Assembly: GCA_043822125.1 (NCBI GenBank)
Contig: JBDRCB010000006.1
Coordinates: forward strand, 45,662-109,661
Direction of reading: 5' to 3'
Source: an archaeon
GTDB lineage: Archaea; Nanobdellota; Nanobdellia; Pacearchaeales; GW2011-AR1
DNA length: 64,000 bases
Part shown: positions 501-12,670 of the stretch, in pieces
Position numbering within the stretch: position 1 is the first letter of the stretch
How the letters are laid out: every line of letters begins with the position of its first letter
Position numbers and translations under genes: made by a program
The notes under the pieces: model-generated
What the model saw: only the letters and a program-made list of their open reading frames with translations
Told to the model about the DNA's origin: nothing
Databases searched by the model: none

Positions 501-3359
501 ATGAGTTATATAAAAAAATTGGTGATGCACGGATTCAAAAGTTTTCCGAAAAAAACAGAAATACCTTTTACCCCAGGAATAAATGTTATTTTAGGTCCGA
601 ACGGAAGCGGAAAATCAAACATTTCCGACGCACTTTGTTTTGTCCTCGGACGCCTTTCAATAAAATCCATGCGCGCAGCAAAAGCAGGCAACTTAATATT
701 TCTCGGAACAAAATCCTATGCTCCGTCAAAAGAAGCGAGTGTGGAAATTGTATTCGACAATTCAAAAAACACTTTTTCAATTAATAATCGTGAGATTTCA
801 ATAAAAAGAATTGTGAGAAAAAATGGACAGAGTATATATAAAATCAACAATGAAACAAAAACCCGTCAGGAGATTTTAAGTTTGCTGGCACAAGCAGGAA
901 TAGATCCAAATGGATTTAACATCATTTTGCAGGGGGAAATTCAAAATTTTGTGAGAATGCAGCCAGATGAAAGAAGAAAAGTAGTTGAAGAGGTTTCAGG
1001 AATTTCTGTTTATGAATACAGAAAAGAGAAATCTCTGAAAGAGCTTGACAGGACAGAAGAAAAATTAAAAGAAGTTTTAGCGATTCTCAGAGAGAGAACT
1101 ATTTATCTTAATAATCTTGAAAAAGAGCGCCAACAGGCACTGCGATTTAAAAAATTAGAACAGGATGCGAAGAAATTCAAGGCAAGTATAATTTATCATG
1201 ATCTAACTAAGAAAAAAAAAGAAAAAGAATCAATAGAATCTGAAATTGAAAAAAAGAATAAGGAAATCGAGAAGATAAAAAAAGAAGTAGCAAATATAAG
1301 TACTACAATAGTATCATTGAATTCAAAGATAGATTCTATAAACTCAAGCATCCAAAAATCTGCTGGAGTTGAGCAGGAGAAGCTTAATAATGAAATAGCA
1401 AATCTGAGGGCAGAGCTTGCCGGCATGTATGTTAAGTCAGAAAATCTTGAGAAAAAACTCTCTATTATTTTAAAGCAAAAAACAGAACTTGAAAAATTTA
1501 TTTTTGATATAGAGAATTCTTTAAAAGAACTGCAGAAAGAATCTCCGTCTTCAATAAAAAAAGAAAAAGAACTTCGCGAAAAAAAACAAGAGCTTGAAAA
1601 ACTCGAGGAGAGAAGGAAGAAATTTTACATGGCGAAGTCAGAATTAAAATCCCTCTTAGAAAGAATTCAGGATAAAAAAAACCTGTTGCAGAACTACTCC
1701 AACGAGTCTGACTTCCTGCTTCGGCAGATAAATTCTGTTTCTCAGAAGCTGTTCGACAAAAAGACAAGTAGCGAAAAACTTAATGCATTAAAATCCTCTC
1801 TTTCTGAAAAAAAAGCACTTCTGGAGATAATTAATAAAAGAGAAATAGAACTTGAGAAAATTTCTTATGCACATGAATCTGAAGTTGAGAATCAGGATAA
1901 AATTATTGAAAAAATTTCAAAAATAGATATTTGTCCTCTATGCAAAAGCAAAATCACAAAAGAACATCTGCACAGCATACAAAGTGAAATTTCTCCAAGG
2001 GTGAAGTTCCTGAAGAAAGAAATTGAAAATGCAGACAGAGAGCTGAATGGGATTTACAAGAAACGCGAAGTGCTCGCAGGAGAGATTGAAAAAATAAGCA
2101 ATGAAATATTAGATAGAGAATCTGATATTGTTAAGCTGTCTGGAATCGAGGAAAAAAAAGAACAGATTAAATCTCTTCATGAAAAAATAACAAACCTGAA
2201 AAAAGAATTGGCAGAGCTTGAAAAAAAGAAAAAAAATCTTGAAGAGAGCTTTAGTGATAATTTTAACATAGAACAGAAATATGAAACTGCGAGAATTGAA
2301 GTACAGGAGATTTCCTTAAGAAGCGAAGAGACAATTAATTCTGAAATATCATTCAAACAGAGGGAATTTGAGAGAGCTAAAATTTCACTTAAACAGCTTT
2401 TAAGAGAAGAGGAAGATCTGAGTGAAGAATTTGAAGAGATGAAAAAAGAAATATCTAAAAAAGAAGATTTGCTGGAAAAAAAGAAAATTAAAGAAGAGGA
2501 GCTGAGCAGTAGATTTAAACAGCTTTTTTCAGAGCGCGACGCTGTTCATAAAAAAATCAGGGAGTGTGAATATGATTCGTCTGAGAAAAATAATTTTATT
2601 TACAGAATTGAGCAGGAGACAAATAATTTCAAAATTGAAAAAGCTCGCGTTGGTGCGGAAATAGAGAACTTTGAGATTGAAATGCTCAGTTTCCCGAATG
2701 TTGAAATTTTAAAATTAGGAAGGGATATCTTAATTCAGAAGCTGAGCAACACGCAAGAGATTCTCTCCAGAATCGGCTCTGTAAATCTGCGGGCATTGGA
2801 GGTTTATGATTCAATAAAGAAAGAATATGACGCGGTTAAAGAAAAAGTGGAGGTAATTTCAAAAGAAAAAGGGAGTGTATTGAAAATTATCAGCGAGATT
2901 GATATTAAGAAAAAAAAGACTTTTATAAAAAATTACAATGAATTAAATGAGATTTTTTCGAGGAATTTTTCCCAGCTCAGCACAAAAGGGCAGGTCTCAC
3001 TTGAACTTGAAAACAAGAAAGATCCTTTTGAAGGAGGGGTTAATATAATTGTAAAGACAGGACACGGAAAGTATTTTGATGTTAAGTCACTTTCAGGAGG
3101 GGAGCAGACACTGGTTGCACTTTCACTTATCTTCGCAATACAGGAATTAAAGCCGTATTATTTTTATATTCTCGACGAAATTGACGCTGCACTTGACAAA
3201 AGAAACTCCGAGCGCTTAGCAGGACTGCTGAAAAAATACATGCAGAAAGGGCAGTATATAATTATCACTCACAACGACGAAGTAATCACTAACGCGACAA
3301 ACCTTTACGGGGTTAGTATGCATGAAGGTATTAGTAAAATTATTAGTTTGAAAATTTGA
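501..3359 (+). CDS. smc: SMC-family chromosome segregation ATPase, short form (952 aa) with a central CxxC instead of a recognisable hinge
   Basis: N-terminal Walker A GPNGSGKSNISDALCFVLG, QGEIQNFVRMQPDERRKVVEEVSGISVY, and C-terminal LSGGEQTLVALSLIFAIQE..YILDEIDAALD. Long K/E-rich coiled coil, with CPLC at nt 1932-1943. Confidence 0.85.
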   Translation: MSYIKKLVMHGFKSFPKKTEIPFTPGINVILGPNGSGKSNISDALCFVLGRLSIKSMRAAKAGNLIFLGTKSYAPSKEASVEIVFDNSKNTFSINNREISIKRIVRKNGQSIYKINNETKTRQEILSLLAQAGIDPNGFNIILQGEIQNFVRMQPDERRKVVEEVSGISVYEYRKEKSLKELDRTEEKLKEVLAILRERTIYLNNLEKERQQALRFKKLEQDAKKFKASIIYHDLTKKKKEKESIESEIEKKNKEIEKIKKEVANISTTIVSLNSKIDSINSSIQKSAGVEQEKLNNEIANLRAELAGMYVKSENLEKKLSIILKQKTELEKFIFDIENSLKELQKESPSSIKKEKELREKKQELEKLEERRKKFYMAKSELKSLLERIQDKKNLLQNYSNESDFLLRQINSVSQKLFDKKTSSEKLNALKSSLSEKKALLEIINKREIELEKISYAHESEVENQDKIIEKISKIDICPLCKSKITKEHLHSIQSEISPRVKFLKKEIENADRELNGIYKKREVLAGEIEKISNEILDRESDIVKLSGIEEKKEQIKSLHEKITNLKKELAELEKKKKNLEESFSDNFNIEQKYETARIEVQEISLRSEETINSEISFKQREFERAKISLKQLLREEEDLSEEFEEMKKEISKKEDLLEKKKIKEEELSSRFKQLFSERDAVHKKIRECEYDSSEKNNFIYRIEQETNNFKIEKARVGAEIENFEIEMLSFPNVEILKLGRDILIQKLSNTQEILSRIGSVNLRALEVYDSIKKEYDAVKEKVEVISKEKGSVLKIISEIDIKKKKTFIKNYNELNEIFSRNFSQLSTKGQVSLELENKKDPFEGGVNIIVKTGHGKYFDVKSLSGGEQTLVALSLIFAIQELKPYYFYILDEIDAALDKRNSERLAGLLKKYMQKGQYIIITHNDEVITNATNLYGVSMHEGISKIISLKI

Positions 3360-3368
3360 GATATTAAA

Positions 3369-3977
3369 ATGAATAAAAAAGAACTCCTTGCCTCTCTTGA
3401 GAAGAAATTTCCAAAAAAAATAGTTGATGCTTTTTTAAAAGTAAAGAGAGAAGATTTTGTTATTGATTCTATGAAGTCAAGAACTTATGAAGACACTGCT
3501 CTTCCCCTCGGGCATGGACAGACAATCTCCCAGCCATATACAATTGCAGTCATGCTCTCGCTTCTTGATGTGAAGGACTCTCAGAAAATTCTAGAGGTCG
3601 GTTCTGGATGTGGTTATGTTCTCGCACTGCTTTCTGAATTGACTGGAAAAAAAGGAAAAGTTTTTGGAGTTGAATTAGTCAAAGAACTTGCAGAACAATC
3701 GAAAAAAAATTTGTATGAATATTCAAATGTGAAAGTTTATAATAAAAATGGTGCAGATGGACTGGAGGAGCATGCTCCTTTTGACAGGATTTTAATCAGT
3801 GCAGCATGCAGAGAAGTCCCTGAAAGACTGCTTGCACAGCTGAAAGACCACGGAATTCTCGTTGCTCCTGTTGGCTCTCGGTATGAGCAGACACTTGTAA
3901 AAATACAAAATAAAAAAAATAATTTTATAACAAAAGAAAAAATATCGGGATTTATTTTTGTCCCGTTTATAGAATAA
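3369..3977 (+). CDS. pcm: Protein-L-isoaspartate O-methyltransferase
   Basis: GHGQTISQPYTIAVML and the SAM-binding ILEVGSGCGY motif. Length 202 aa. Confidence 0.9.
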   Translation: MNKKELLASLEKKFPKKIVDAFLKVKREDFVIDSMKSRTYEDTALPLGHGQTISQPYTIAVMLSLLDVKDSQKILEVGSGCGYVLALLSELTGKKGKVFGVELVKELAEQSKKNLYEYSNVKVYNKNGADGLEEHAPFDRILISAACREVPERLLAQLKDHGILVAPVGSRYEQTLVKIQNKKNNFITKEKISGFIFVPFIE

Positions 3978-4015
3978 AGGAGAAAGTAATAAAAATAAAA
4001 AAATAAAAAAAGAAA

Positions 4016-5242
4016 TTAATAGTAACTTTCTCCGAATTCTTCTGTTTTTTCAGGTTTCTTTCCTAAAAGAACAATCAAGACTACCAGCAATACAATAAAG
4101 ATTATTGCCAGAACAATTGCAAGTATAACAGCTGGATTTGTTATTGAAGTACCCTCTACTTTTGCATTAAGAGTCACGCTCTCAACAAGCTGTTCTCCTG
4201 AGAAGAAATTCACATTGAATTTATATTCTCCTTCTTCACTCGCACTAACACTTATTTTAATGTTCTTGCTTGAACCTGCTGGAACAGCTACTAATGTGCT
4301 GTCTGTACTTGAAGAAATTCCTCCAGAAGATTCTGTAATTACTCTGTATACTTTCAGCTTGTTTGTTGGGTTGACAACCAGAATGTCATATTCTGCATTC
4401 TCTCCAACAGCAAAAGTTTTTCCTGTGCTATATACAACAACATTTTCTGAAAAGTCATTTTCAACAGCAATTTGTATTGTCCTGCTTTTTACAACATCGT
4501 TGTTTTCAGCTTCTACTTCAATAGTGTAAGTTCCTGCTTTAGCATCATAAGGAATATTCACATAGAATCTTCCTGTTGCTGTGTCTTCATCGTCATCACA
4601 TTCGTCTTCAGAGCATCTTGTTGTAATTATATTCCTGAAGTAAGATGTTTTTTCAATTCCTAATGCTGGAATTTTCAAAGTTACATACAAGTCTTCAAGT
4701 TCATTGTATCCAATGTTCTTGATCACAACATCAACTGGCAACATTTCACCAGCCCCTACTTTCTGCTCTGTGCTTATTGACATAAAGTCAAGATTGTATG
4801 AAGGTCTCTGAACTCTGAGAGTAATCTCAGGATGTTCTGTTTTGAAGTCGCCGTTCCAGATTTTTATATTAAGGGCAAGGTCTTCACTGACTTCGTCGTT
4901 AAGTTCATATGGAACTTTTAGAGTCAATGTTTTTTTGTATCTTTTTCCTTCCTCAATAACAAATCTTGAAGTGACTGCATCAACATCTGTTTTGTCTCCT
5001 TCAATTTCTACCCTCATCCTTACATCTGAAGCATCTTCAAGTGCGATGAATTCTACTTCTACTGTAACTGTCTCTCCGGCAGTAACACTAATATCTTCAT
5101 TGCTGTATTCATACAAATCATTGATTCTGACTTCCTGAATTCCTGCAATTTCACTTGTTGCTGCGCTGATTGTTGACACTAGAAATAAAGCACTTACAAT
5201 CGATAGGAAAAAAACCATAAGGTTTTTTGTTTTCATTTCCAT
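4016..5242 (-). CDS. Secreted cell-surface protein (N-terminal signal peptide, beta-rich repeats, C-terminal TM anchor), possible S-layer/CARDB-like protein
   Basis: N-terminus MKTKNLMVFFLSIVSALFLVSTISA. C-terminal hydrophobic AVILAIVLAIIFIVLLVVLIVLL followed by a basic tail. Confidence 0.5.
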   Translation of the reverse strand: MEMKTKNLMVFFLSIVSALFLVSTISAATSEIAGIQEVRINDLYEYSNEDISVTAGETVTVEVEFIALEDASDVRMRVEIEGDKTDVDAVTSRFVIEEGKRYKKTLTLKVPYELNDEVSEDLALNIKIWNGDFKTEHPEITLRVQRPSYNLDFMSISTEQKVGAGEMLPVDVVIKNIGYNELEDLYVTLKIPALGIEKTSYFRNIITTRCSEDECDDDEDTATGRFYVNIPYDAKAGTYTIEVEAENNDVVKSRTIQIAVENDFSENVVVYSTGKTFAVGENAEYDILVVNPTNKLKVYRVITESSGGISSSTDSTLVAVPAGSSKNIKISVSASEEGEYKFNVNFFSGEQLVESVTLNAKVEGTSITNPAVILAIVLAIIFIVLLVVLIVLLGKKPEKTEEFGESYY

Positions 5243-5374
5243 TTTAAAATTTAATTGCCAGAAACTTTGTTTTCTGGTATTTTTGAAATACTAAACTTCT
5301 TTATAAATTTTACTATTGTTGTAATTTTATAGTTACAAAGAATTTACCCTAATGTCAGGGACACTCAGTGAATG

Positions 5375-6154
5375 CTATTCGTCTTTACATATTTCTAGTC
5401 CTTTTGCAGAATCTTCGACAGGAGAAGGGCTCTCATTTATTATAATTATTTTTTTATTTTTTGGTAGATTTTTAAACAACCATTTCCAATATTTTTCTTC
5501 TGTTCTTTTGTGATTTTTTTCTCCTTTTACTCCATATTCAATTCCTGAAAAATGACAGTGCCATTCTTTTTGTGGAAATAATTTTTTTATTTTCTCCCAT
5601 TCTAATTCTTTTTCCCTAGCCAGTATATGTGCAAAATCAAGGCAGAAACCGCATCCAGTGTCTTTTACTAATTCTGCTATTTCCTCTGCACTCCCAAAAA
5701 CATTTGTCTTCCCAGTTGTTTCAGGTGCAAGTTTTGGAGTGTAATTTTTTTCTCTTCTTGCTTTCTGCAGTTTTTCAATTTCAGATTTTATTTTTCTATA
5801 TGTCTGTTCTTTTGTGCTCTTTCCATAATAGCCAGGATGAAAGACAATTTTTTCAGCATCAAGCCATGTCCCGACTTCAAGGCATCTCAGAATTCTTTTT
5901 TTGCTTTTCTCAGCAATTTCTTTTTTATCAGAATTTAGATTTATCCAGTAAGGTGCGTGGATACTTAATTCAACATCATATTTTTTCGCAGATTTTTTTA
6001 TTTTCAGAGCATCTTCTTTGTTTTTAATGTAAATTCCATAAGTGAATGCAATCTCGCATGCTTTCAAGCCGAGTTTGTGATATTCCTCAAGATTTTCAAC
6101 TGCTTCTTTCACACCCCCGAGCCCTGCAGGCCCGAATTTTATCTCCATTGTCAC
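5375..6154 (-). CDS. nfo: Endonuclease IV-like / xylose isomerase-like TIM-barrel protein
   Basis: The spacing of SIHAPYWINLNS, VFHPGYYG, CLDFAHILA and HCHFSGIEYG resembles the metal-binding motifs of AP endonuclease family 2. Confidence 0.65.
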   Translation of the reverse strand: MTMEIKFGPAGLGGVKEAVENLEEYHKLGLKACEIAFTYGIYIKNKEDALKIKKSAKKYDVELSIHAPYWINLNSDKKEIAEKSKKRILRCLEVGTWLDAEKIVFHPGYYGKSTKEQTYRKIKSEIEKLQKARREKNYTPKLAPETTGKTNVFGSAEEIAELVKDTGCGFCLDFAHILAREKELEWEKIKKLFPQKEWHCHFSGIEYGVKGEKNHKRTEEKYWKWLFKNLPKNKKIIIINESPSPVEDSAKGLEICKDE

Positions 6155-6996
6155 AGGAATTCAAGAGGAGATTTAGTGTTTATTAAATTTGGAGATGCAA
6201 TGTGAGTATAAACTAATGTTGTTTCAGGAGATTTGTGCCCCAACATTGCTTGCACATTTGTGATATCATATCCATTCTCAATTAGATGAGTTGCAAAGCT
6301 ATGTCTTAATATATGTGGAGAGATTTCTTTCCAATTTTTTAGTTTAGCTTTTTTTGAAGCATTTTTGATTATTCTTTGGATGCTCCGCATATGATATTTT
6401 TTATTCCTATTCGACTGAAATAAAGAATCTTCTCCATTTAGATTTTCAATTTCAATTAAGTTTTTTATCTTCTCCCTGACAATTTTAGACAAAATGATTA
6501 ATCTGTCTTTTCCACCTTTGCCGTTCCTTACATAGCCGTAATTTTTATCTAATTTTAAATCTTTTAATTTCATATTTAATAGTTCTGAAACTCTTAAACC
6601 AGAACCATAAAGAAATTCAATCATTAATCTGTGCTTCCAATTAGAAATTGAATTCAGCAATTTTCTAATTTCTTCTTTTGACAAAACAGAAGGAATTTTT
6701 TGCGGAGTTTTGGAGTATTTGATGTCAACCCACATCCTTCGATTCATCACATCTTCAAAAAGGAATTTTATTGCCATATGAGCAACATTTAGGGTATTTC
6801 CAGAAAGATTTTGATTATTTAACTTTTGTAGAAATGCATTAACATCTTTTTTTGAGATATATCTTAAATCTTTTCTGCTCCAATTTAGAAATCTTCTAAT
6901 CCAATAAATATATGATTTCGCAGTTCTCTCAGAATGCCTGTATCTTTTACATTTTGCCTTAACTGCTAATTCTATATCAGAAGGGAAATATACCAT
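6151..6996 (-). CDS. Tyrosine site-specific recombinase, Xer/IntI-like (281 aa)
   Basis: Catalytic signature YGSGLRVSEL (R), GKGGKDR (K), HILRHSFATH (HxxR), LGHKS and LVYTHI (Y). The N-terminal RYRHSERTAKSYIYWIRRF is SAM-like. The stop overlaps the nfo-like start (ATGA). Confidence 0.85.
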   Translation of the reverse strand: MVYFPSDIELAVKAKCKRYRHSERTAKSYIYWIRRFLNWSRKDLRYISKKDVNAFLQKLNNQNLSGNTLNVAHMAIKFLFEDVMNRRMWVDIKYSKTPQKIPSVLSKEEIRKLLNSISNWKHRLMIEFLYGSGLRVSELLNMKLKDLKLDKNYGYVRNGKGGKDRLIILSKIVREKIKNLIEIENLNGEDSLFQSNRNKKYHMRSIQRIIKNASKKAKLKNWKEISPHILRHSFATHLIENGYDITNVQAMLGHKSPETTLVYTHIASPNLINTKSPLEFL

Positions 6997-7115
6997 AATA
7001 GACTATAAAATATATTTATAAAAATGTAAGTTTTAACTTTAGAGTTAAACAAGTATTTCTTGATACTGATACAAAATTTAATTCTTTCACAGCCTAATAC
7101 AATTATTTTTATCAA

Positions 7116-7143
7116 AATTCGCATAAAGTCTGTTAAATCCAAT
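7116..7143. repeat. dif-like Xer-type site S0: AATTCGCATAA-AGTCTG-TTAAATCCAAT
   Basis: 11-6-11 architecture with inner ATAA / TTAA arm ends. TCGCATAA resembles the GCGCATAA arm of E. coli dif. It lies about 120 bp upstream of the recombinase ATG. Confidence 0.55.
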
Positions 7144-7148
7144 TGCCC

Positions 7149-7646
7149 CTACGCGCGCTCTAAGAATTTTTGAATTAAATGGGCTTTATGCTCACGATTT
7201 GTTTCTGCATAAGTTTGTGCTTCTGCCTCTAAAGTAAAACAAGGAATTTCAATATCATCAATTTTCTTCTTTGTTAATTTGTTTGCTAATAATTTGCTAA
7301 CATACTCGCCCGTATCTCTTTCTCCTAAAATTTGAACTTCTACATTTCCAATATCTAATTTGACTTCCCAACCGGGCTCGTCTGTTAGAGGTTTCAATTC
7401 CTTGACGGCAGAAGCATTATATTCTGAAAAGATTTCTCGCATTTTTTCCAAATCTTTTAACTGCACAACAATATCCAAATCGTGAGGGCTAACATCCATT
7501 CCTTGTAATTGCATATTTGTACTTCCGATTAAAGCCCATTTAATTTTATTTTCATTCATTAATTTGTGAATTATTTTGATTGCTTTTTTGAAGTTTTCAT
7601 TTATCATATATTCAAAATAATTCTTATTATTTAATAACTTTACCAT
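7149..7646 (-). CDS. Nucleotidyltransferase-fold protein (module cargo)
   Basis: ALIGSTNMQLQGMDVSPHDLDIVV matches the GS..(n)..DxD pattern of the pol-beta-type nucleotidyltransferase superfamily. Confidence 0.55.
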   Translation of the reverse strand: MVKLLNNKNYFEYMINENFKKAIKIIHKLMNENKIKWALIGSTNMQLQGMDVSPHDLDIVVQLKDLEKMREIFSEYNASAVKELKPLTDEPGWEVKLDIGNVEVQILGERDTGEYVSKLLANKLTKKKIDDIEIPCFTLEAEAQTYAETNREHKAHLIQKFLERA

Positions 7647-7725
7647 AACGCGCGCTTCGGGGCAACTCCTTCGCCTTCGGCTCGGTCACGCCTTGCAGGC
7701 TCTCACAAAATCAAAGATTTTGTTA

Positions 7726-7753
7726 GGAGGATTTAACAGCGATTAGTTTCAAT
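7726..7753. repeat. dif-like site A1: GGAGGATTTAA-CAGCGA-TTAGTTTCAAT
   Basis: Same 11-6-11 layout and orientation as the other copies. It is preceded by the CACGCCTTGCAGGCTCTCAC block (7687-7706). Confidence 0.5.
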
Positions 7754-7810
7754 TCTGGGTTTGCCTTTCAGGCACGCTTCGCTACCGAAAATTCTAATGT
7801 TGTTATCTTC

Positions 7811-7868
7811 GTTTAACGCTCCAATGCGAAATTAAAATTATCGCATAACATCGCTGATTAAACGAAAT
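7811..7868. repeat. Two decayed dif-like copies with no ORF between them (TTTAACGCTCCAATGCGAAATT and TCGCATAACATCGCTGATTAAACGAAATT)
   Basis: They share TCGCATAA with site S0 and the ..AAC..GAAATT tail with the consensus. Indels break the 6-nt spacer. Confidence 0.35.
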
Positions 7869-7901
7869 TGCTGAAAAATAAAAATAGTAGAAACGAAAGA
7901 T

Positions 7902-8438
7902 TTAATCTTTTGGAAGAATTCTTATTCTGTCTGCTCTCTTATTTCCTGCTTGAGTTTCAGGTGTAAAATAAGTTTCATTAGGGTAATCTCTATTCGCTGA
8001 ACCACCAAACCAATTTCCATGTCTCATGTTTCCAGAAGGAAAGCTTATTCTTGTTCCTTCTCCGATAATTGCATCAAGAGCTTCTTTTTTAATTGGAATT
8101 CCTGGTTTTCCATATGCTTTACCTTTTCCAAATTCATCTCCATCAATAACTGAAACTCCAATGATTCTTCCGTCATCGGTTTGAACTTTAAGAACATATT
8201 TTGATTCTAATTTTACTGTTTCATTAGAATAACTCATTAAACCATTCCAGTTTGGAACAGGCGATAATGTGTTTTGATAACTCTCTGCGAGAACGGTTCC
8301 AACAATTTGTCTTTTTCCTTCTTCAAATAATCTTTCATATTTTCTATCGGCATTTATCATACTGGAACCTGCAAAGTATGCGCCTGTAGCGATTCCTAAT
8401 GAAACCAATCCACCGATGACTTTATTTTTCAAACTCAT
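7902..8438 (-). CDS. Hypothetical membrane-anchored protein (module cargo)
   Basis: 178-aa ORF with an N-terminal hydrophobic segment VIGGLVSLGIATGAYFAG. No recognisable family. Confidence 0.45.
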   Translation of the reverse strand: MSLKNKVIGGLVSLGIATGAYFAGSSMINADRKYERLFEEGKRQIVGTVLAESYQNTLSPVPNWNGLMSYSNETVKLESKYVLKVQTDDGRIIGVSVIDGDEFGKGKAYGKPGIPIKKEALDAIIGEGTRISFPSGNMRHGNWFGGSANRDYPNETYFTPETQAGNKRADRIRILPKD

Positions 8439-8598
8439 ACTAAACAGAATAAACCAATACTTTATAAACCTTTCGGTTCTTTTACCACTTGAGAGTTAAT
8501 AATTTATTTTTCAACAATTACGATAACAACGAATTTTCGGCGAGCCCCGAACTTCTCCCTTCGGTCGACCACGTTGCACTCTCCTCCTTTCAGTCGTC

Positions 8599-8626
8599 GG
8601 GAGACATAACAGGAATTATATCCAAT
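8599..8626. repeat. dif-like site B: GGGAGACATAA-CAGGAA-TTATATCCAAT
   Basis: This is the best copy. The minus strand reads ATTGGATATAA-TTCCTG-TTATGTCTCCC, and TTATGT matches the XerD-side arm start of E. coli dif. It is preceded by CACGTTGCACTCTCC (8570-8584). Confidence 0.6.
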
Positions 8627-8645
8627 TTGGGCAAATAATTTATTC

Positions 8646-8858
8646 TTAAGTATTATGCCTATAAATTATATATTCAAAAGAGGGCTCTTTAAGAACTATT
8701 TCTTTAATTTCATTTGGAGAAGTATATTTTATCTTTAATTCATAACCTTTCTTAAAGTGCCCCATAGTATGATGTCTTTTAACATCTTCTAAATTCATTT
8801 TATTTTTAGAGATCCCTGTTGATGTAATGATTTTCTCAATTTGTTCTATAAGATCCAT
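8646..8858 (-). CDS. Hypothetical 70-aa protein (module cargo)
   Basis: ORF bounded by the perfect 10-bp inverted repeat TTTGGGCAAA (8626-8635) / TTTGCCCAAA (8892-8901). No family recognised. Confidence 0.4.
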   Translation of the reverse strand: MDLIEQIEKIITSTGISKNKMNLEDVKRHHTMGHFKKGYELKIKYTSPNEIKEIVLKEPSFEYIIYRHNT

Positions 8859-8956
8859 ATAAAATTGTTTAAATACCTTAATTTAAAAATGTTTGCCCAA
8901 ACTCAAAATCCTTAAGATTTTGCCACGCTGCGCTCTCATTTCGCTTCGCTCCATTC

Positions 8957-8984
8957 GGGAGATATAACACGAATTATATTCAAT
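8957..8984. repeat. dif-like site C: GGGAGATATAA-CACGAA-TTATATTCAAT
   Basis: 24 of 28 positions are identical to site B. It is preceded by CACGCTGCGCTCTC (8924-8937). Confidence 0.6.
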
Positions 8985-8997
8985 TGAACTTGGCGCG

Positions 8998-9450
8998 CTA
9001 TTGATGCATTACAATAATTTCTTTTAGAAGTGGACCTTTCTTTCCGAAAGGTAAATCAAACCATCTTTCTTCAAACCATTCAATTTTATGTTTTTTAACT
9101 TCTCCAAAATGTGGATCTGCCAAAATAATTTTATCTTTGTCAAAGCCTACAACCACAGAATAATGCCCTGCTTCTTCAGGAGAAAACCAATCAACTATAA
9201 CAGGAATTCCTTTTTTTACTAATTTTTTCACTTCGTTAATTGAGGAATTCTGTTTTACATATCCCTTGAAGCCAAATTCTTCTGCGGCTTTGACTATATT
9301 TTCTTCATCGCAACCTCTTGTTCTACTGCTTTTTGTTGTTTTTGCTAAATAATTTTCTGATTTATTTATTCCATAAGCAGATAGAACCATCTTTAATGAG
9401 GCAGGTCCACAATATCCTTTTGATTGTTTGAATGGTTTGAGTTTAATCAT
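8998..9450 (-). CDS. Peptidase C39-like (papain-fold cysteine peptidase) domain protein (module cargo)
   Basis: QSKGYCGPASLKMVLSAYG (catalytic Cys context) and GHYSVVVGFDKDKIILADP (His) match the C39-like pattern. Confidence 0.6.
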   Translation of the reverse strand: MIKLKPFKQSKGYCGPASLKMVLSAYGINKSENYLAKTTKSSRTRGCDEENIVKAAEEFGFKGYVKQNSSINEVKKLVKKGIPVIVDWFSPEEAGHYSVVVGFDKDKIILADPHFGEVKKHKIEWFEERWFDLPFGKKGPLLKEIIVMHQ

Positions 9451-9474
9451 AATAATATTAAAAGAAATTATTAG

Positions 9475-9484
9475 TATATAAAAA
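9475..9484 (-). promoter_or_regulatory. Candidate TATA box (minus strand TTTTATATA) for the C39-like gene
   Basis: AT-rich TTTATATA-like element centred about 30 nt upstream of the ATG at 9450. It lies between the ORF and the right inverted-repeat arm (9495-9505). Confidence 0.35.
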
Positions 9485-9557
9485 TGTTGTTTACGCGCGC
9501 CAAGTCCAACTCTAAAATTTTCCTTCGGAACGTTGCACTAAAAATCAATCCCTAACG

Positions 9558-9585
9558 GGAGAAACTAACAGGAATTCCCAGCGTA
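9558..9585. repeat. Hybrid dif-like site D1: GGAGAAACTAA-CAGGAA-TTCCCAGCGTA (left arm and spacer conserved, right arm unrelated)
   Basis: The spacer CAGGAA is identical to site B. It is preceded by AACGTTGCACT (9529-9539). The right arm lacks the TTATATyCAAT consensus. Confidence 0.45.
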
Positions 9586-9872
9586 GATAAATCGACCAAA
9601 TTTAAAATTTCATTTTTTGCCCGCCCGAGATAGAAGAAAAAAGCCCGCAGTCCTTCGGACAAATAGCTTTTTGCCGTCGGCAAAAATAGAAAAACTTCTT
9701 TTATCCGACCAACGAAAACCGAAATGAAATTTTTCAAATTTCACATAACCAAGGATAAAAGGTTCGTTTCACTCACGCAAATTTTTCATTGATAAGGGGA
9801 GTTCCTAATCCTTCGGATAATTTGTCGGCTTACGCCGAAAATGTTTTAAGGTTTATTTTTATAATTCTTTTA

Positions 9873-10694
9873 ATGAGTAATGAAATAAAAATAAAAAAGA
9901 AAACAATAAAGAATGTTTCTTATTTTGTAATCGGAATTCTTGTTTTATTGTTTCTATTCTGGCCAACACAGAATAACGAAGATTATAATCAGCCAGATAA
10001 ATATAATCAAATTATTCTTGATGAATCAGAAAATACAGGAAACGAATTAAATGAAGATAATTTTGACAAAATAGAAGAATTGCATTGGGGAAAAATCCCT
10101 ATAACATATAAATTTGAAAATGAAAATACAGAAAGACAGCTTAATTTGACAAGAAATGCTTTCTCTAAGATTGAGGAAGAAACAGGAGGAATTGTGACGT
10201 TTGAAGAAGTTTCAGAAAACCCAGATATTTCAATTTATTTCAAATCCTCAGAATATAATTCTGGTAGCGAGCATACTGTTGCAGATGCCCTTATTTCCGA
10301 AGTCGATGATTCAAGGAATTTAATTTTAAGAGGAGAATTAAATTTTTATGGGCAAGGTTTTGTCTGTAACACTGGTTACCCTGCTTTAGAAGTTCATGAA
10401 ATTCTTCATTTATTTGACATTCCCCATAACCCTCTAACTAAAAGTATAATGAGTCCATACACTGCCGAATCCTCATCTAGATGTGAAATAACAGAAATCG
10501 ATTCGGAATATATTTCTTGTTTGAGATACATATATTCCAATGGTGAAATTGAAGGAAATTGTGATTTTCCAAATGTTATTCACGAAAAAGAACCCGAATA
10601 TGTTTGCGATGAAGGTTGGTATCCTGTTGCGGGAACAGATTATTGTTGTCCTGAACCCAATATGAGAATTGTTGATGATTATTGCGAATATTAA
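9873..10694 (+). CDS. Secreted/membrane-anchored zinc metalloprotease (HExxHxxxxxH), Cys-rich C-terminus
   Basis: HEILHLFDIPHN zincin motif. N-terminal TM segment VSYFVIGILVLLFLFW. The start was moved to the ATG at 9873 because the upstream part of the track ORF runs through repeat sequence. Confidence 0.6.
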   Translation: MSNEIKIKKKTIKNVSYFVIGILVLLFLFWPTQNNEDYNQPDKYNQIILDESENTGNELNEDNFDKIEELHWGKIPITYKFENENTERQLNLTRNAFSKIEEETGGIVTFEEVSENPDISIYFKSSEYNSGSEHTVADALISEVDDSRNLILRGELNFYGQGFVCNTGYPALEVHEILHLFDIPHNPLTKSIMSPYTAESSSRCEITEIDSEYISCLRYIYSNGEIEGNCDFPNVIHEKEPEYVCDEGWYPVAGTDYCCPEPNMRIVDDYCEY

Positions 10695-10955
10695 AAACAA
10701 AAGAACCCCTCATTTTCTTTTTAGAAAAAAGAAATAAAAAAGGGCAGGCTTTTTTCTCGAATTATTTGGTCGTCGGAAACAACCATCCTCCTTTCCACCC
10801 TGAAAGAAAAATTAAAACTCACGAGGGGCTTTTTTAGCCTAGCTCGTGCCTCACTATTTCAGAGGTTCAAACCGAAAATATTATTAACAACGCCCTCTTT
10901 TGTTATATTAACATAATCCCAGGTGATCCGAAAGGGTTGCCTGATGCTTTAAAAA

Positions 10956-11480
10956 ATGAAATTTACAATTGTATTTATTGATGAGGTTATTTATCTTTTG
11001 TTTCTAAATTTTTTGGAAAAGGCAAACCACTAAAATATAAGATAGAGGTTTTTGCAAAAAACCTTGCAGAATCAAAGGGATTAGAATGTAAAAAAATTTA
11101 TTTTTATACTGCACCTCCTTATCAAGACTCAATGCCGACAAAAGAGGAGAATAGAAGAAAAGCTAGTTATGATAAATTTAATAATTGTTAGAGAAGGAAG
11201 ATGTCAAAAAATTGACAAGATTTATCAACAAAAAGGAGTAGATACCCTTTTAACAATTGACTTATCAAGAATTCCTAAAAAAGAAGGGATTTTTGATATT
11301 ATAGTTTTGACTTCAGATACAGATTTTGTTCCAATTATTAATGATTTATTTGAAGACGGAATAAATGTTATTCTCGCTTACTTTACAGATAGAAAAAGAA
11401 AGTCTGGACTTTCTCTTTCAAACTATTTGTGGAAGGCATGTAAAAATAAGATAAAAATTAAAAAAGAATTTTTTTCTTAA
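10956..11480 (+). pseudogene. NYN/LabA-like domain gene disrupted by two frameshifts
   Basis: MKFTIVFIDE (frame 0), then GYLSFVSKFFGKGKPL...YFYTAPPYQDSMPTKEENRRKASYDKFNNC* (frame 2, 10985-11191), then VREGRCQK..QQKGVDTLLTIDL..VLTSDTDFVPII (frame 0, 11169-11480). Confidence 0.6.
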
Positions 11481-11512
11481 AAAACAAAAAATTCAGGAAG
11501 AAAACTTCCTGA

Positions 11513-12670
11513 TTAAAAACTTAATAATTTTATTTTGTCGCTTGATGCTGCAAAATTTTTTGCAACTATCGCCTGACATTTTGAATCTTCAGCAGATTTT
11601 ATAACATTACCTGTTACAGCACCGTCAACCACTATTGCATAAATTTTCTCGCTGTCTTTTCTTAATGCACCACCAACTCCTTTTGCAGAAACACTTTTTA
11701 TCTCATTTAAATCTTCGTCTAAAAAAATTGCCTTTCCAGTTCCGCTGTTTTCTTCTGAAATTTTTTTCAGTTTTTCTTTTATCTCGTCGCTGATTTCTTT
11801 TATCTCACCATCTTGGACTTTTTCTCTAAAGTCTTCTGTTCTCTGCCTGTAATCTCTCCTGTTGAAAAATTCATTTACTGGAATTTTTTTTCTCAACTGC
11901 ATCCAGATTTCTTTGCCAGTAAGCTCCTCAACCTCTTTTCCGTCGGGTGCAACTGCAATGTATTTTACCTTAGCATTGTCAGCCACATTTTGGGCTATCA
12001 ATCTTCCGCCTCTGTCGCCGTCGATAAAAAGAGTAAGTTCTTTGTTATCTCCTAGTTTTATTATGTCTTCGTTGAGCTTTGTCCCATTCATTGCTATTGC
12101 ATTGTTTATTCCGTTTCTCAAAAGATTCAAAACATCTGCTCTTCCCTCGACAATAATAACTTCTTTTCCTGATAAATCTCCGCATGGTAGCTTATCTTTT
12201 CCAAATTCTTTCACACCTGCTGTTTTTGCAGAGTCTTTTATCTCATTTGAAATTTCTCTTGAGTCAGCAGAGCCGTGAATCTGCCCCATTAATTTTTTAG
12301 CCCTGTCTAAGATATAATCTCTTTTGCTTCCTCTGACATCTTCAATTCTTTCAACTTCCAGCTGAGAATCGCATGGTCCTATTCTTTCAATTGTTTCCAC
12401 TGCTGCTGCAATCAAGGTTGTTTCTGACTGGTCAAGTGCAGTCGGAATTTTTATTTTTCCTGTTGTTCTTCTGTCATTTCTCTCTAATTCAACTTCAATT
12501 CTTCCGATTTTTCCTTCTTTCTGCAGTTCTCTCATCTCCAGCTCAGCACCCAACAATCCTTCTGTCTGCCCGAAAATCGCGCCAATTACGTCAGGTTTTT
12601 CAAGTGCACCTTCTGCTGAAAAATTCACATGTATCATATATTTTATTGATACTGGACTTATTTTTGCCAT
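11513..12670 (-). CDS. dnaG: Archaeal DnaG-type primase (Toprim)
   Basis: The N-terminus IKYMIHVNFSAEGALEKPDVIGAIFGQTEGLLG is characteristic of archaeal DnaG. Toprim motifs VIIVEGRADVLNL and FIDGDRGG are present. Confidence 0.85.
   Translation of the reverse strand: MAKISPVSIKYMIHVNFSAEGALEKPDVIGAIFGQTEGLLGAELEMRELQKEGKIGRIEVELERNDRRTTGKIKIPTALDQSETTLIAAAVETIERIGPCDSQLEVERIEDVRGSKRDYILDRAKKLMGQIHGSADSREISNEIKDSAKTAGVKEFGKDKLPCGDLSGKEVIIVEGRADVLNLLRNGINNAIAMNGTKLNEDIIKLGDNKELTLFIDGDRGGRLIAQNVADNAKVKYIAVAPDGKEVEELTGKEIWMQLRKKIPVNEFFNRRDYRQRTEDFREKVQDGEIKEISDEIKEKLKKISEENSGTGKAIFLDEDLNEIKSVSAKGVGGALRKDSEKIYAIVVDGAVTGNVIKSAEDSKCQAIVAKNFAASSDKIKLLSF

Follow-up and report, generated by a model that had tools for sequence, protein, structure and literature searches.

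A candidate integron-like gene-cassette platform beside a XerA-like tyrosine recombinase gene in a DPANN archaeon

In a 64-kb stretch of AT-rich DNA (about 32% GC; contig JBDRCB010000006.1, hereafter the window) from an archaeon of the Pacearchaeales, short dif-like sites, each made of two arms around a 6-nt spacer, recur in direct orientation next to the gene of a XerA-like tyrosine recombinase and separate single open reading frames (ORFs). This raises the question of what kind of system has assembled the array. The initial annotation had read it as small elements that accumulated through capture by Xer-type recombination, and this reading is borne out by at least 130 site-carrying loci, by complementarity between the two ends of a cassette, by empty and occupied alleles and by a cassette shared between samples. 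Judging from sequence comparisons, it appears likely that the locus represents a chromosomal integron-like gene-cassette platform run by the XerA-like recombinase. The platform would consist of the recombinase gene and an insertion site approximately 120-180 bp upstream of it. Throughout the text, site sequences are read on the minus strand of the window, which is the sense strand of the recombinase gene and is referred to as the recombinase strand.

A degenerate version of the site motif matched seven times in the window, compared to 1.15 expected matches, and none of 100 shuffled sequences reached this number. Four of the seven matches are sites that had been noted before, and all coordinates of the initial annotation were correct. 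Scanning with a 30-nt weight matrix trained on 136 independent sites (threshold of at least 12 bits) identified three full sites, 7726-7753, 8599-8626 and 8957-8984, scoring 33-35 bits and all located on the minus strand, while nothing else in the 64 kb scored above 12 bits. At the two ends of the array only half of the matrix was matched, namely the left half by 7116-7143 and the right half by 9558-9585, as would be expected of the proximal and distal hybrid junctions left by an insertion. At 7116-7143, the left arm is read as that of cassette 1 and the spacer and right arm as those of the platform; at 9558-9585, the left arm would be the platform's, and spacer and right arm those of cassette 4. 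The left arm of the second full site is identical to the left arm of the Pyrococcus abyssi dif that was used in vitro (ATTGGATATAA-TCGGCC-TTATATCTAAA; Cortez et al., 2010, PMC2958812), and the third site agrees with this dif at 10 of 11 and 8 of 11 arm positions. Because of this match the sites of the window closely resemble a validated XerA substrate.

To what extent this arrangement recurs was examined in two collections. In GTDB genomes, searching with the protein as a guide led to 18 loci, whose recombinases share 51-77% identity across most of the protein (in L018, 83% over a fragment of 48 residues), and metagenome-assembled genomes (MAGs) of Nanoarchaeota, Woesearchaeota and Pacearchaeota proved to be the closest relatives of the window. 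Metagenomes scanned with a DNA pattern (dif-like core plus AGYGCARCG) contributed at least 120 contigs, derived from groundwater and sediment samples (L020-L139). All pooled counts given below rest on the matches listed, which form a comparative set of 139 loci (949 kb) designated by L numbers. These loci contain 345 sites of at least 12 bits, compared to two in shuffled sequence. Sites were present in at least 130 loci, none of which carried them on mixed strands, with up to 12 sites per contig and a median spacing of 683 nt. A scan for a canonical palindromic dif (ATTGnAnnTAA-N6-TTAnnTnCAAT) did not exceed chance in the window, with three matches for 2.83 expected, and gave none in the 139 loci.

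The intervals between the sites amount to 213 distinct units, 33 of them 'empty' (shorter than 200 nt), and a single ORF of at least 50 aa is found in 137 of the 180 larger ones; the median cassette length is about 650 bp. Relative to the site, the longest ORF is oriented in the opposite direction in 99 cases and in the same direction in 76. The cargo is made up of diverse small enzymes and regulators and comprises S-adenosylmethionine-dependent methyltransferases, kinases of the aminoglycoside phosphotransferase type, GNAT, nucleotidyltransferases, Fic, HD, MazG-like, C39 and TrmB proteins, and recombinase, replication and capsid families are absent from the 25 most frequent Pfam families among 150 cassette proteins. 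A search of IMG/VR viral contigs for the site-plus-motif pattern yielded no match.

The arrangement of complementary sequences is what most clearly defines these units. Among 190 distinct units, variable arm positions were complementary at 3.94 of 5 positions when the left arm at the downstream end of a cassette was compared with the right arm at its upstream end, but only at 2.18 of 5 within a site, and cassette-wise complementarity was perfect in 105 units; likewise, the longest pairing run of the closing stem had a median of 13 cassette-wise and of 7 for the flanks of the same site (Wilcoxon p of 1e-21 and 5e-25). Since pairing is cassette-wise and not neighbour-wise, each unit has the properties of a circularly permuted, excisable cassette. 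When the analysis was anchored, 141 of 180 units proved to have good closing stems; these measure 16 bp in the median and comprise 1695 Watson-Crick pairs as opposed to 38 mismatches. In 129 of the 141, the stem opens with the initial three bases of the left arm, ATT, which pair with an AGT located behind the module. The order of elements in the reconstituted site is stem strand, ATT-GnAnnTAA, N4TG, TTAnnTnC, module, AGT, stem strand. It has a median length of 107 nt, of which the cassette-specific stem strand takes up about 13 nt; TTAnnTnC represents the first 8 nt of the right arm, and the module of 45-70 nt includes the motif A-G-Y-GCA-R-C-G. In effect, the module interrupts a long, spacer-centred palindrome after the eighth base of the right arm. 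The 28-bp site described initially is present, but it is only the core of a larger structured element of about 107 nt.

Folding energies follow the same logic, with -22.7 kcal/mol for cognate reconstitutions, -11.5 for chimeras and -11.8 for the flanks as they stand in the array. Using RNAalifold on 24 reconstituted sites, which were picked for good closing stems and arms and belong to one structural class, 38 pairs in five helices were obtained, 28 of them with compensatory changes. In this alignment 96.7% of the cells pair, compared to 69.5% in shuffles (none of 500 reached the observed value) and 31-57% when the partners were slid.

The module is also strongly asymmetric with respect to the strand. 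Its conserved nonamer forms a mini-hairpin, A-G-Y-(GCA)-R-C-G, in which the Y/R pair was T-A 50 times, C-G 34 times and T-G twice, and never a non-pair, though the search pattern allowed four combinations; longer variants keep the GCA loop on an extended stem, e.g. GCCT-GCA-AGGC. Among the triloops of the modules, GAA was found 63 times and TTC five times. CGNAG occurred 251 times on the recombinase strand and 10 times on the other, and GCGNAGC 84 times as opposed to once, where about 34 of the 84 stem from the ascertainment pattern and the remainder are independent. Both GCGNAGC and d(GNA) loops closed by a C-G pair are known as 'extraordinarily stable' DNA mini-hairpins (PMC13037366, PMC3201870). 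In 131 of 141 reconstituted sites it is the recombinase strand that gives the more stable fold, and the ATT/AGT triplet contains a T-G pair on this strand and an A-C pair on the other. This suggests that the recombinase strand folds as single-stranded DNA, similar to the attC bottom strand and the DNA of CTX(+).

Evidence for insertion comes from alleles with and without cassettes. In L007, the distal flank runs directly into spacer and arm of the platform (...aaaattaaaatttgggcgAAGCCAAGCAA/CAAACA-TTTAACGAACT..., with the slash marking the border between left arm and spacer here and below), leaving an empty site some 180 nt ahead of the recombinase start. In L078, this flank continues into spacer and arm of a cassette (AAGCCAAGCAA/TCAGTG-TTAGTTTCCCC), so that the presence/absence polymorphism between relatives by which the capture of modules was to be recognized does exist, and L003 shows a window-type distal flank followed by a cassette-type spacer and arm. 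These three alleles place the crossover between left arm and spacer, which agrees with the invariant CAGACT-type spacer at the proximal junction. Furthermore, L136 and L068, two contigs from different samples, share a cassette at 95.9% identity that has different neighbours in each. At one end, this homology stops exactly at the border of left arm and spacer; at the other, it breaks off within the module close to AGYGCARCG, the left boundary of the shared cassette being blurred by module swapping. Two contigs have identical ends, namely L099 (8205 nt, seven sites) over 125 nt, with the overlap stopping exactly one base past a left arm, and L117 (1473 nt, three sites) over 53 nt. These may represent circular molecules with several cassettes, tandem repeats or artefacts of the assembly at the repeated sites.

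Which enzyme might act on these sites? Twenty-four site-bearing loci, including the window, hold a recombinase homologue (40-77% identity). In 23 of these, the last site is followed downstream by the gene, with sites and gene oriented alike; only L007 deviates, its sole scored site being downstream of the gene. The same order and orientation are found in 13 contigs that were identified via the DNA site alone, and homologues found by tblastn with the window recombinase fall outside the cassette intervals. In the junction between array and gene, a left arm of the cassette type is combined with a CAGACT-like spacer and an arm of the TTATGCGAACT/TTTAACGAACT type, the latter two being conserved upstream of the recombinase in relatives. 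This platform-type junction is located about 120-180 bp upstream of the start codon in the window and in L003, L005, L006, L010, L017, L046, L091 and L098, with arrays on that side only; in some loci the distance is longer, e.g. about 840 bp in L057. In the window, the intervening DNA presumably contains the promoter of the recombinase gene. In L017, the recombinase homologue (10001-10873) is broken over three reading frames, representing either a pseudogene or assembly errors, and only two scored cassette sites are found upstream of it.

The recombinase itself has recognizable catalytic motifs (LRVSEL, GKGGKDR, HILRHSFATH and LGHKSPETTLVYTH, assigned by eye) and matches the Pfam family Phage_integrase (1.2e-41) together with a SAM-like N-terminal domain. 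Its best solved structure is XerA of P. abyssi (4a8e, 1.3e-41), and its score of 212.2 bits against the archaeal XerA equivalog NF040815 lies slightly under the cut-off of 220. Synteny downstream of the gene is kept within sub-lineages and the upstream side is variable, which is why the recombinase is considered resident and not cargo, as had been supposed from the start. The argument originally used for this, translational coupling to an nfo-like gene via an ATGA overlap, did not hold: between the recombinase gene and nfo, stop and start codon overlap as GTGA or are arranged as TGA-ca-ATG, and nfo adjoins the recombinase in the window only and in none of the relatives. In the closest syntenic relative, L005, the recombinase gene is directly upstream of a 952-aa gene and a 408-aa gene adjoins dnaG, while in the window (501-12670) nfo, recombinase and array sit between the 408-aa gene and dnaG; therefore, either the whole platform has moved or the region has been rearranged.

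Taken together, the following scheme can be proposed. In the platform site, a CAGACT-type spacer would separate a weak left arm from a right arm of the form TTATGCGAAyT, and a cassette would comprise in most cases one gene in either orientation, seemingly with its own TATA-like promoter, and one attachment site of about 107 nt. The adjoining XerA-type enzyme would probably recombine the site of a circular cassette with the platform site, crossing over at the boundary of left arm and spacer, and recombination between two direct sites would release cassettes as circles. From the crossover position it follows that the site of each cassette is split between its two ends and that each junction is a hybrid of two cassettes. 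More tentatively, since the spacers differ (TYSCTG in cassette sites, CAGACT in the platform) and junctions are always found at the left-arm border, it is conceivable that only the strand cut at this border is exchanged and that the event is brought to completion by replication, similar to integrons and CTX phage. The folded strand might then present an 11-bp arm duplex, made of AGT and 8 bp of the right arm and continued by the stem of the respective cassette, and the mini-hairpin module might serve as a structural marker.

Several observations weigh against such a platform or limit what can be concluded. About a quarter of the cassettes have non-cognate arms or weak closing stems. Sites are mosaic, with hairpin modules swapped between otherwise identical sites, and this swapping, which probably occurs by homologous recombination, implies that homologous exchange between sites also shapes the arrays. 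Among the listed loci, neither an excised circle nor a reconstituted single-cassette junction was found, the sites whose own flanks do pair being weak, AT-rich or tandem empty units. A catalytic role of the adjoining recombinase is suggested by its linkage to the sites, and this linkage is not universal: of 26 site-ascertained contigs with at least about 2.4 kb past the last scored site, 15 contain no recombinase gene, and in L030 (7025-9700) the gene that comes after a platform-type junction (ATTGAACATAA-CAGACT-TTTAACGAAAT) encodes a 782-aa protein resembling aminoacyl-tRNA synthetases in place of a recombinase. Hence, arrays can exist without a recombinase gene in cis. As to the fold, helices 1 and 2 of the covariation analysis were partly selected for by the choice of sequences, whereas helices 3-5 were not, and the closing stems are nearly all Watson-Crick with 38 GT as opposed to 25 AC pairs, which is not decisive for the folding strand or for folding as such.

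It has to be considered whether the cassettes are ordinary integrative mobile elements exploiting Xer (IMEX) that were stacked at the chromosomal dif. In this case the gene would encode the sole housekeeping XerA, the proximal junction ('site 0') would be the dimer-resolution site and the cassettes would be parasites mimicking dif, without any dedicated platform. This explanation overlaps with the platform proposed here, the sole difference being whether the insertion site doubles as dif, and it could draw on the closeness of the recombinase to the XerA equivalog cut-off, on the failure to find a second homologue within the 64-kb window and on cassette cores that are much like a validated archaeal dif. 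Moreover, single-recombinase Xer systems with dif beside the gene do exist (XerS/difSL). The initial annotation had indeed proposed capture at or next to the chromosomal dif, but the data lend no support to dif itself as the insertion site. The empty site of L007 (AAGCCAAGCAA-CAAACA-TTTAACGAACT) is a poor palindrome, matching at 4 of 11 positions and thereby unlike archaeal dif, and no GC-skew switch occurs at position 7116, the skew following gene orientation. In addition, the cassettes carry single accessory genes and an elaborate, conserved structured site in place of replication or transfer genes, and no site was found in the viral contigs of IMG/VR. Stacking at dif is therefore considered unlikely, and the dedicated platform is preferred.

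A very improbable explanation is that the GC-rich elements are transcribed structured RNAs, insulators or terminators and that the dif-like 28-mers are promoter or terminator sequence. Such an explanation would account for GC-rich, structured elements in an AT-rich genome, for the resemblance of the AT-rich arms to TATA boxes and for the conserved T-G (U-G) pair that ATT/AGT forms on one strand. It is difficult to reconcile with ORFs in both orientations to the element (99 and 76), with halves of a structure that are separated by a whole ORF and match cassette-wise, with empty and occupied alleles and with the linkage and shared orientation to the recombinase gene. The C-GNA-G triloops are typical of DNA mini-hairpins and not of RNA, where GNRA or UNCG tetraloops would be expected, and G-U is not in excess in the closing stems. 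A scan of window positions 5000-12000 against Rfam with E-values up to 5 gave three sub-threshold chance matches only, with no match to the distal flank (9586-9880).

A classical integron with IntI and attC, as already reported in Archaea, can practically be dismissed: despite a 207-bit match to TIGR02249 ('integron integrase'), the topology of array, site and recombinase and a conserved G/TTA at the border of spacer and arm that recalls G/TTRRRY, this match is under the family cut-off of 265 and split into two stretches, the insertion specific to IntI (IntI4 residues ~198-236) has no counterpart in the alignment to 2a3v (query 13-197 to 10-197, query 198-279 to 237-318), the sites have an 11-6-11 dif layout instead of R''-L''...L'-R', and the cassettes occur in both orientations with apparent promoters of their own (by eye, for the four cassettes of the window). 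The published archaeal attCs end in ...AAC and GTTAGSC and contain no 11-6-11 dif core (Data S9 of PMC9668308), and by layout and by comparison with these sequences the sites described here are judged not to be attC. Further candidates were discarded in turn: an invertible segment or shufflon, as all sites are direct; a miniature inverted-repeat transposable element or insertion sequence, as each cassette has flanking repeats found in no other, which are invariably adjacent to the conserved arms, and as no transposase is present; an array like clustered regularly interspaced short palindromic repeats (CRISPR), by spacing, coding content and the lack of cas genes; and split tRNAs or introns of the bulge-helix-bulge type, as a tRNA scan found none in the array region, no Rfam signal was present and the pairing is DNA-like.

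The features of the window are compiled in Table 1. As initially stated, each of the four intervals contains one minus-strand ORF, encoding a nucleotidyltransferase, a membrane protein, a 70-aa protein and a C39-like peptidase, respectively. All four ORFs are preceded by TATA-like boxes at a distance of 20-35 nt (by eye), and a GC-rich hairpin module of about 45-70 nt is found 3' of every site on the recombinase strand. Every ORF is flanked by a cassette-specific inverted repeat, with one copy adjoining the left arm of the downstream site and the second located behind the GC-rich block that belongs to the upstream site. Neither the modules nor these repeats had been noted in the initial annotation. 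When the units are closed as a circle, repeats, arms and GC block fold into multi-branched structures of -19 to -34 kcal/mol.

Table 1. Features of the array region in the 64-kb window (positions on the forward strand).
Feature	Positions	Strand	Basis or remark
XerA-like tyrosine recombinase, 281 aa	6151..6996	-	Pfam, NCBIfam, structure match
Spacer between insertion site and recombinase start codon	6997..7115	-	sequence; AT-rich
Putative proximal junction ('site 0', attI-like), ATTGGATTTAA/CAGACT-TTATGCGAATT	7116..7143	-	left-half matrix match
Cassette 1	7133..7742	-	nucleotidyltransferase ORF 7149-7646
Full site s1, ATTGAAACTAA-TCGCTG-TTAAATCCTCC	7726..7753	-	35.1 bits
Small non-coding unit, nested palindrome	7754..7868	-	sequence; conserved with L009 3470-3650
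Cassette 2	7858..8615	-	178-aa secreted/membrane protein ORF 7902-8438, TATA-like TTTATAAAG upstream
Full site s2, ATTGGATATAA-TTCCTG-TTATGTCTCCC	8599..8626	-	34.0 bits
Cassette 3	8616..8973	-	70-aa ORF 8646-8858, no Pfam family
Full site s3, ATTGAATATAA-TTCGTG-TTATATCTCCC	8957..8984	-	33.8 bits
Cassette 4	8974..9574	-	C39-like peptidase ORF 8998-9450
Putative distal junction, TACGCTGGGAA/TTCCTG-TTAGTTTCTCC	9558..9585	-	right-half matrix match
Distal flank of insertion site, non-coding, GC-rich with hairpins	9586..9880	-	conserved in relatives
Outer variable slot	9876..10855	+	M10-like peptidase ORF 9876-10694 (+); bounded by element 'X' 10707-10855

Cassette 1 shows the split site most completely. 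Its upstream end is formed by the spacer and right arm of s1, followed by the GC-rich module (7668-7725) and one closing repeat (7650-7664), and its downstream end by the other closing repeat (7144-7159) and the left arm (7133-7143). The right arm TTAAATCC is the exact palindromic partner of the left arm GGATTTAA, the ORF is flanked by its own inverted repeat (TGCCCCTACGCGCGC and GCGCGCTTCGGGGCA), and the reconstituted junction folds at -34 kcal/mol. The encoded protein matches Aminoglyc_resit/nucleotidyltransferase in Pfam (3.9e-7). The annotated start of this ORF abuts the closing repeat; because a TATA-like TTATTAAATAATAAG is located 20-35 nt upstream of Met14 (~7607), the latter is probably the true start.

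Cassette 2 has flanking repeats that are 90% complementary (7863-7882 and 8503-8522) and a module at about 8552-8598; its protein with signal or transmembrane segment matches no Pfam family. As its arms are non-cognate, this cassette is a mosaic. In cassette 3, closing repeats (~8627-8636 and 8892-8901) and a module with GCGAAGC and GCGCAGC (8902-8956) surround the ORF, which has its own inverted repeat (TTTGGGCAAA and TTTGCCCAAA). Cassette 4 is built alike, with closing repeats at 8985-8999 and 9493-9509, a module at 9512-9557 and the inverted repeat ACTTGGCGCGC and GCGCGCCAAGT around the peptidase ORF (Pfam Peptidase_C39_2, 1.7e-20), homologues of which are also borne on cassettes in L063 and L103.

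Two stretches that had been taken for decayed copies of the site turned out not to be simple decayed sites. The first, 7811-7868, is part of the conserved non-coding unit between s1 and cassette 2, which has a second arm type (ATTTCGTTTAA ... TTAAACGAAG) that is the palindromic partner of the right arm of the platform, and a platform-type arm remnant, TTATGCGATAA (7840-7869). The second, a right-half-like site at 9738-9765, lies inside the distal flank of about 290 nt. A variant of the site, ATTGnAnnTAA-CATCGGnn-TTAAACGAAG, was encountered in L046 (665-790), L063 (1004 and 1676), L038 (4535), L073 (4032), L100 (1276) and L108 (5421), where some 100 nt further on ...TCGGTTAA continues into a spacer and right arm of the normal kind. 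The variant thus resembles a palindrome-ended mini-element of about 110 nt that may have inserted at the border of left arm and spacer.

The distal flank is conserved with L003 7330-7670 (86% mean column identity in a MAFFT alignment, 75% over 304 nt by blastn), and the sequence at the distal junction, GGTCGATTTATC-G/T-ACGCTGGGAA, recurs at L003 7610. Partial homologues, sometimes several per locus, were present in L007, L078, L008, L034, L064, L076 and others. On the far side of the flank, element 'X' is 86-87% identical to L007 77-222 and L003 5477-5629, and the slot bracketed by 'X' and the distal region contains a GNAT gene in L007 (flanked by GGGCACTTTC and GAAAGTGCCC) and three ORFs in L003. 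This outer slot may represent an older layer of cassettes with a different site type. Further downstream in the window, an ORF with an NYN domain (11169-11480) matches only positions 71-129 of the 145 of the profile; because the preceding 200 nt begin with an ATG-led reading frame, a frameshifted NYN gene (10956-11480) is possible.

With regard to novelty, no description of Xer-linked cassette arrays in archaea was found in the full-text searchable literature, and neither IMEX nor DPANN are brought up in a review on tyrosine recombinases of archaea from 2021. A more far-reaching proposal, which could equally well hold or fail, is that DPANN archaea of the Woesearchaeales/Pacearchaeales type possess an independently evolved second 'integron', in which a recombinase derived from XerA captures and stockpiles single-gene cassettes using folded single-stranded sites of about 107 nt with GNA-triloop mini-hairpins. 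If true, this would be a living example of an integron-type system arising from Xer/dif, and gene flux in ultra-small archaea would have one of its major routes here. The arrays themselves make it possible to test directly whether Xer recombinases and integron integrases are linked in evolution, as has been proposed. The system would explain how accessory genes are exchanged in genome-reduced DPANN archaea, which have few recognised mobile elements, and it offers biochemistry a compact pair of recombinase and site with unusual DNA mini-hairpin substrates.

Among the known systems, the archaeal XerA/dif system (PMC2958812; PDB 4a8e, 5hxy) has a recombinase similar to that of the platform and shares with it the 11-6-11 layout, near-identical arms (ATTGGATATAA and TTATATCT) and flanking inverted repeats, which have been noted around dif of Thermococcales as well. 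It has one site per chromosome, away from xerA, whereas many direct sites adjoin the recombinase gene here, bound variable genes and have a right arm interrupted by a hairpin module. XerS/difSL and XerH/difH likewise combine a single Xer recombinase with a site close to its gene, but to our knowledge comprise one site and neither a cassette array nor a structured extension. In the pdif modules of Acinetobacter plasmids, which the initial annotation had also brought up, small gene modules without a recombinase of their own are found between 28-bp Xer-type sites. These are inversely oriented (XerC-XerD and XerD-XerC), and the modules reside on plasmids and are acted on by XerC/D; here, the sites are chromosomal and embedded in a long structured palindrome. 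Since all of them are direct repeats (none of the 130 listed loci being mixed), the pdif analogy fails.

The analogies to IMEX arrays and integron cassettes are backed by the comparative data. IMEX that use host XerCD at dif, such as CTX, TLC and VGJ in Vibrio or the gonococcal island, also lack a recombinase of their own, carry a dif-like site and stack in tandem at one chromosomal site, and CTX integrates as a folded single strand with exchange of one strand. They are phages or islands with replication or transfer genes and not single-gene cassettes of about 0.65 kb, and in the archaeal arrays a single XerA-type enzyme would act on a target that is a poor palindrome and for which identity with dif is only a possibility.

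Integrons, defined by the IntI integrase and attC hairpins, are the textbook case for the capture of promoterless genes. The arrays resemble them, and also the integrons reported from archaea (Ghaly et al., 2022, PMC9668308), in a tyrosine recombinase gene beside a dedicated insertion site, in mostly single-gene cassettes without mobility genes, 'empty' ones among them, and in a similar cargo of accessory enzymes. In both, each cassette has an imperfect palindrome of about 60-140 nt that is conserved in structure and variable in sequence and is split by the crossover, resulting in cassette-wise complementarity, and a strand asymmetry suggests a folded single strand. The arrays differ from integrons in a XerA-like enzyme without the IntI insertion, in a core of the dif type, 11-6-8(+3), in place of R and L boxes, and in a set of multi-branched mini-hairpins in place of the single bulged hairpin of attC. 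The crossover leaves about 25 nt at one end of the cassette and about 80 nt at the other, compared to 6 nt in integrons, and cassettes lie in both orientations, seemingly with their own promoters and with no evident common Pc promoter. It thus appears that the logic of integrons, i.e. a recombinase beside its insertion site, arrays of single genes and split structured sites, has here been built on XerA and dif cores.

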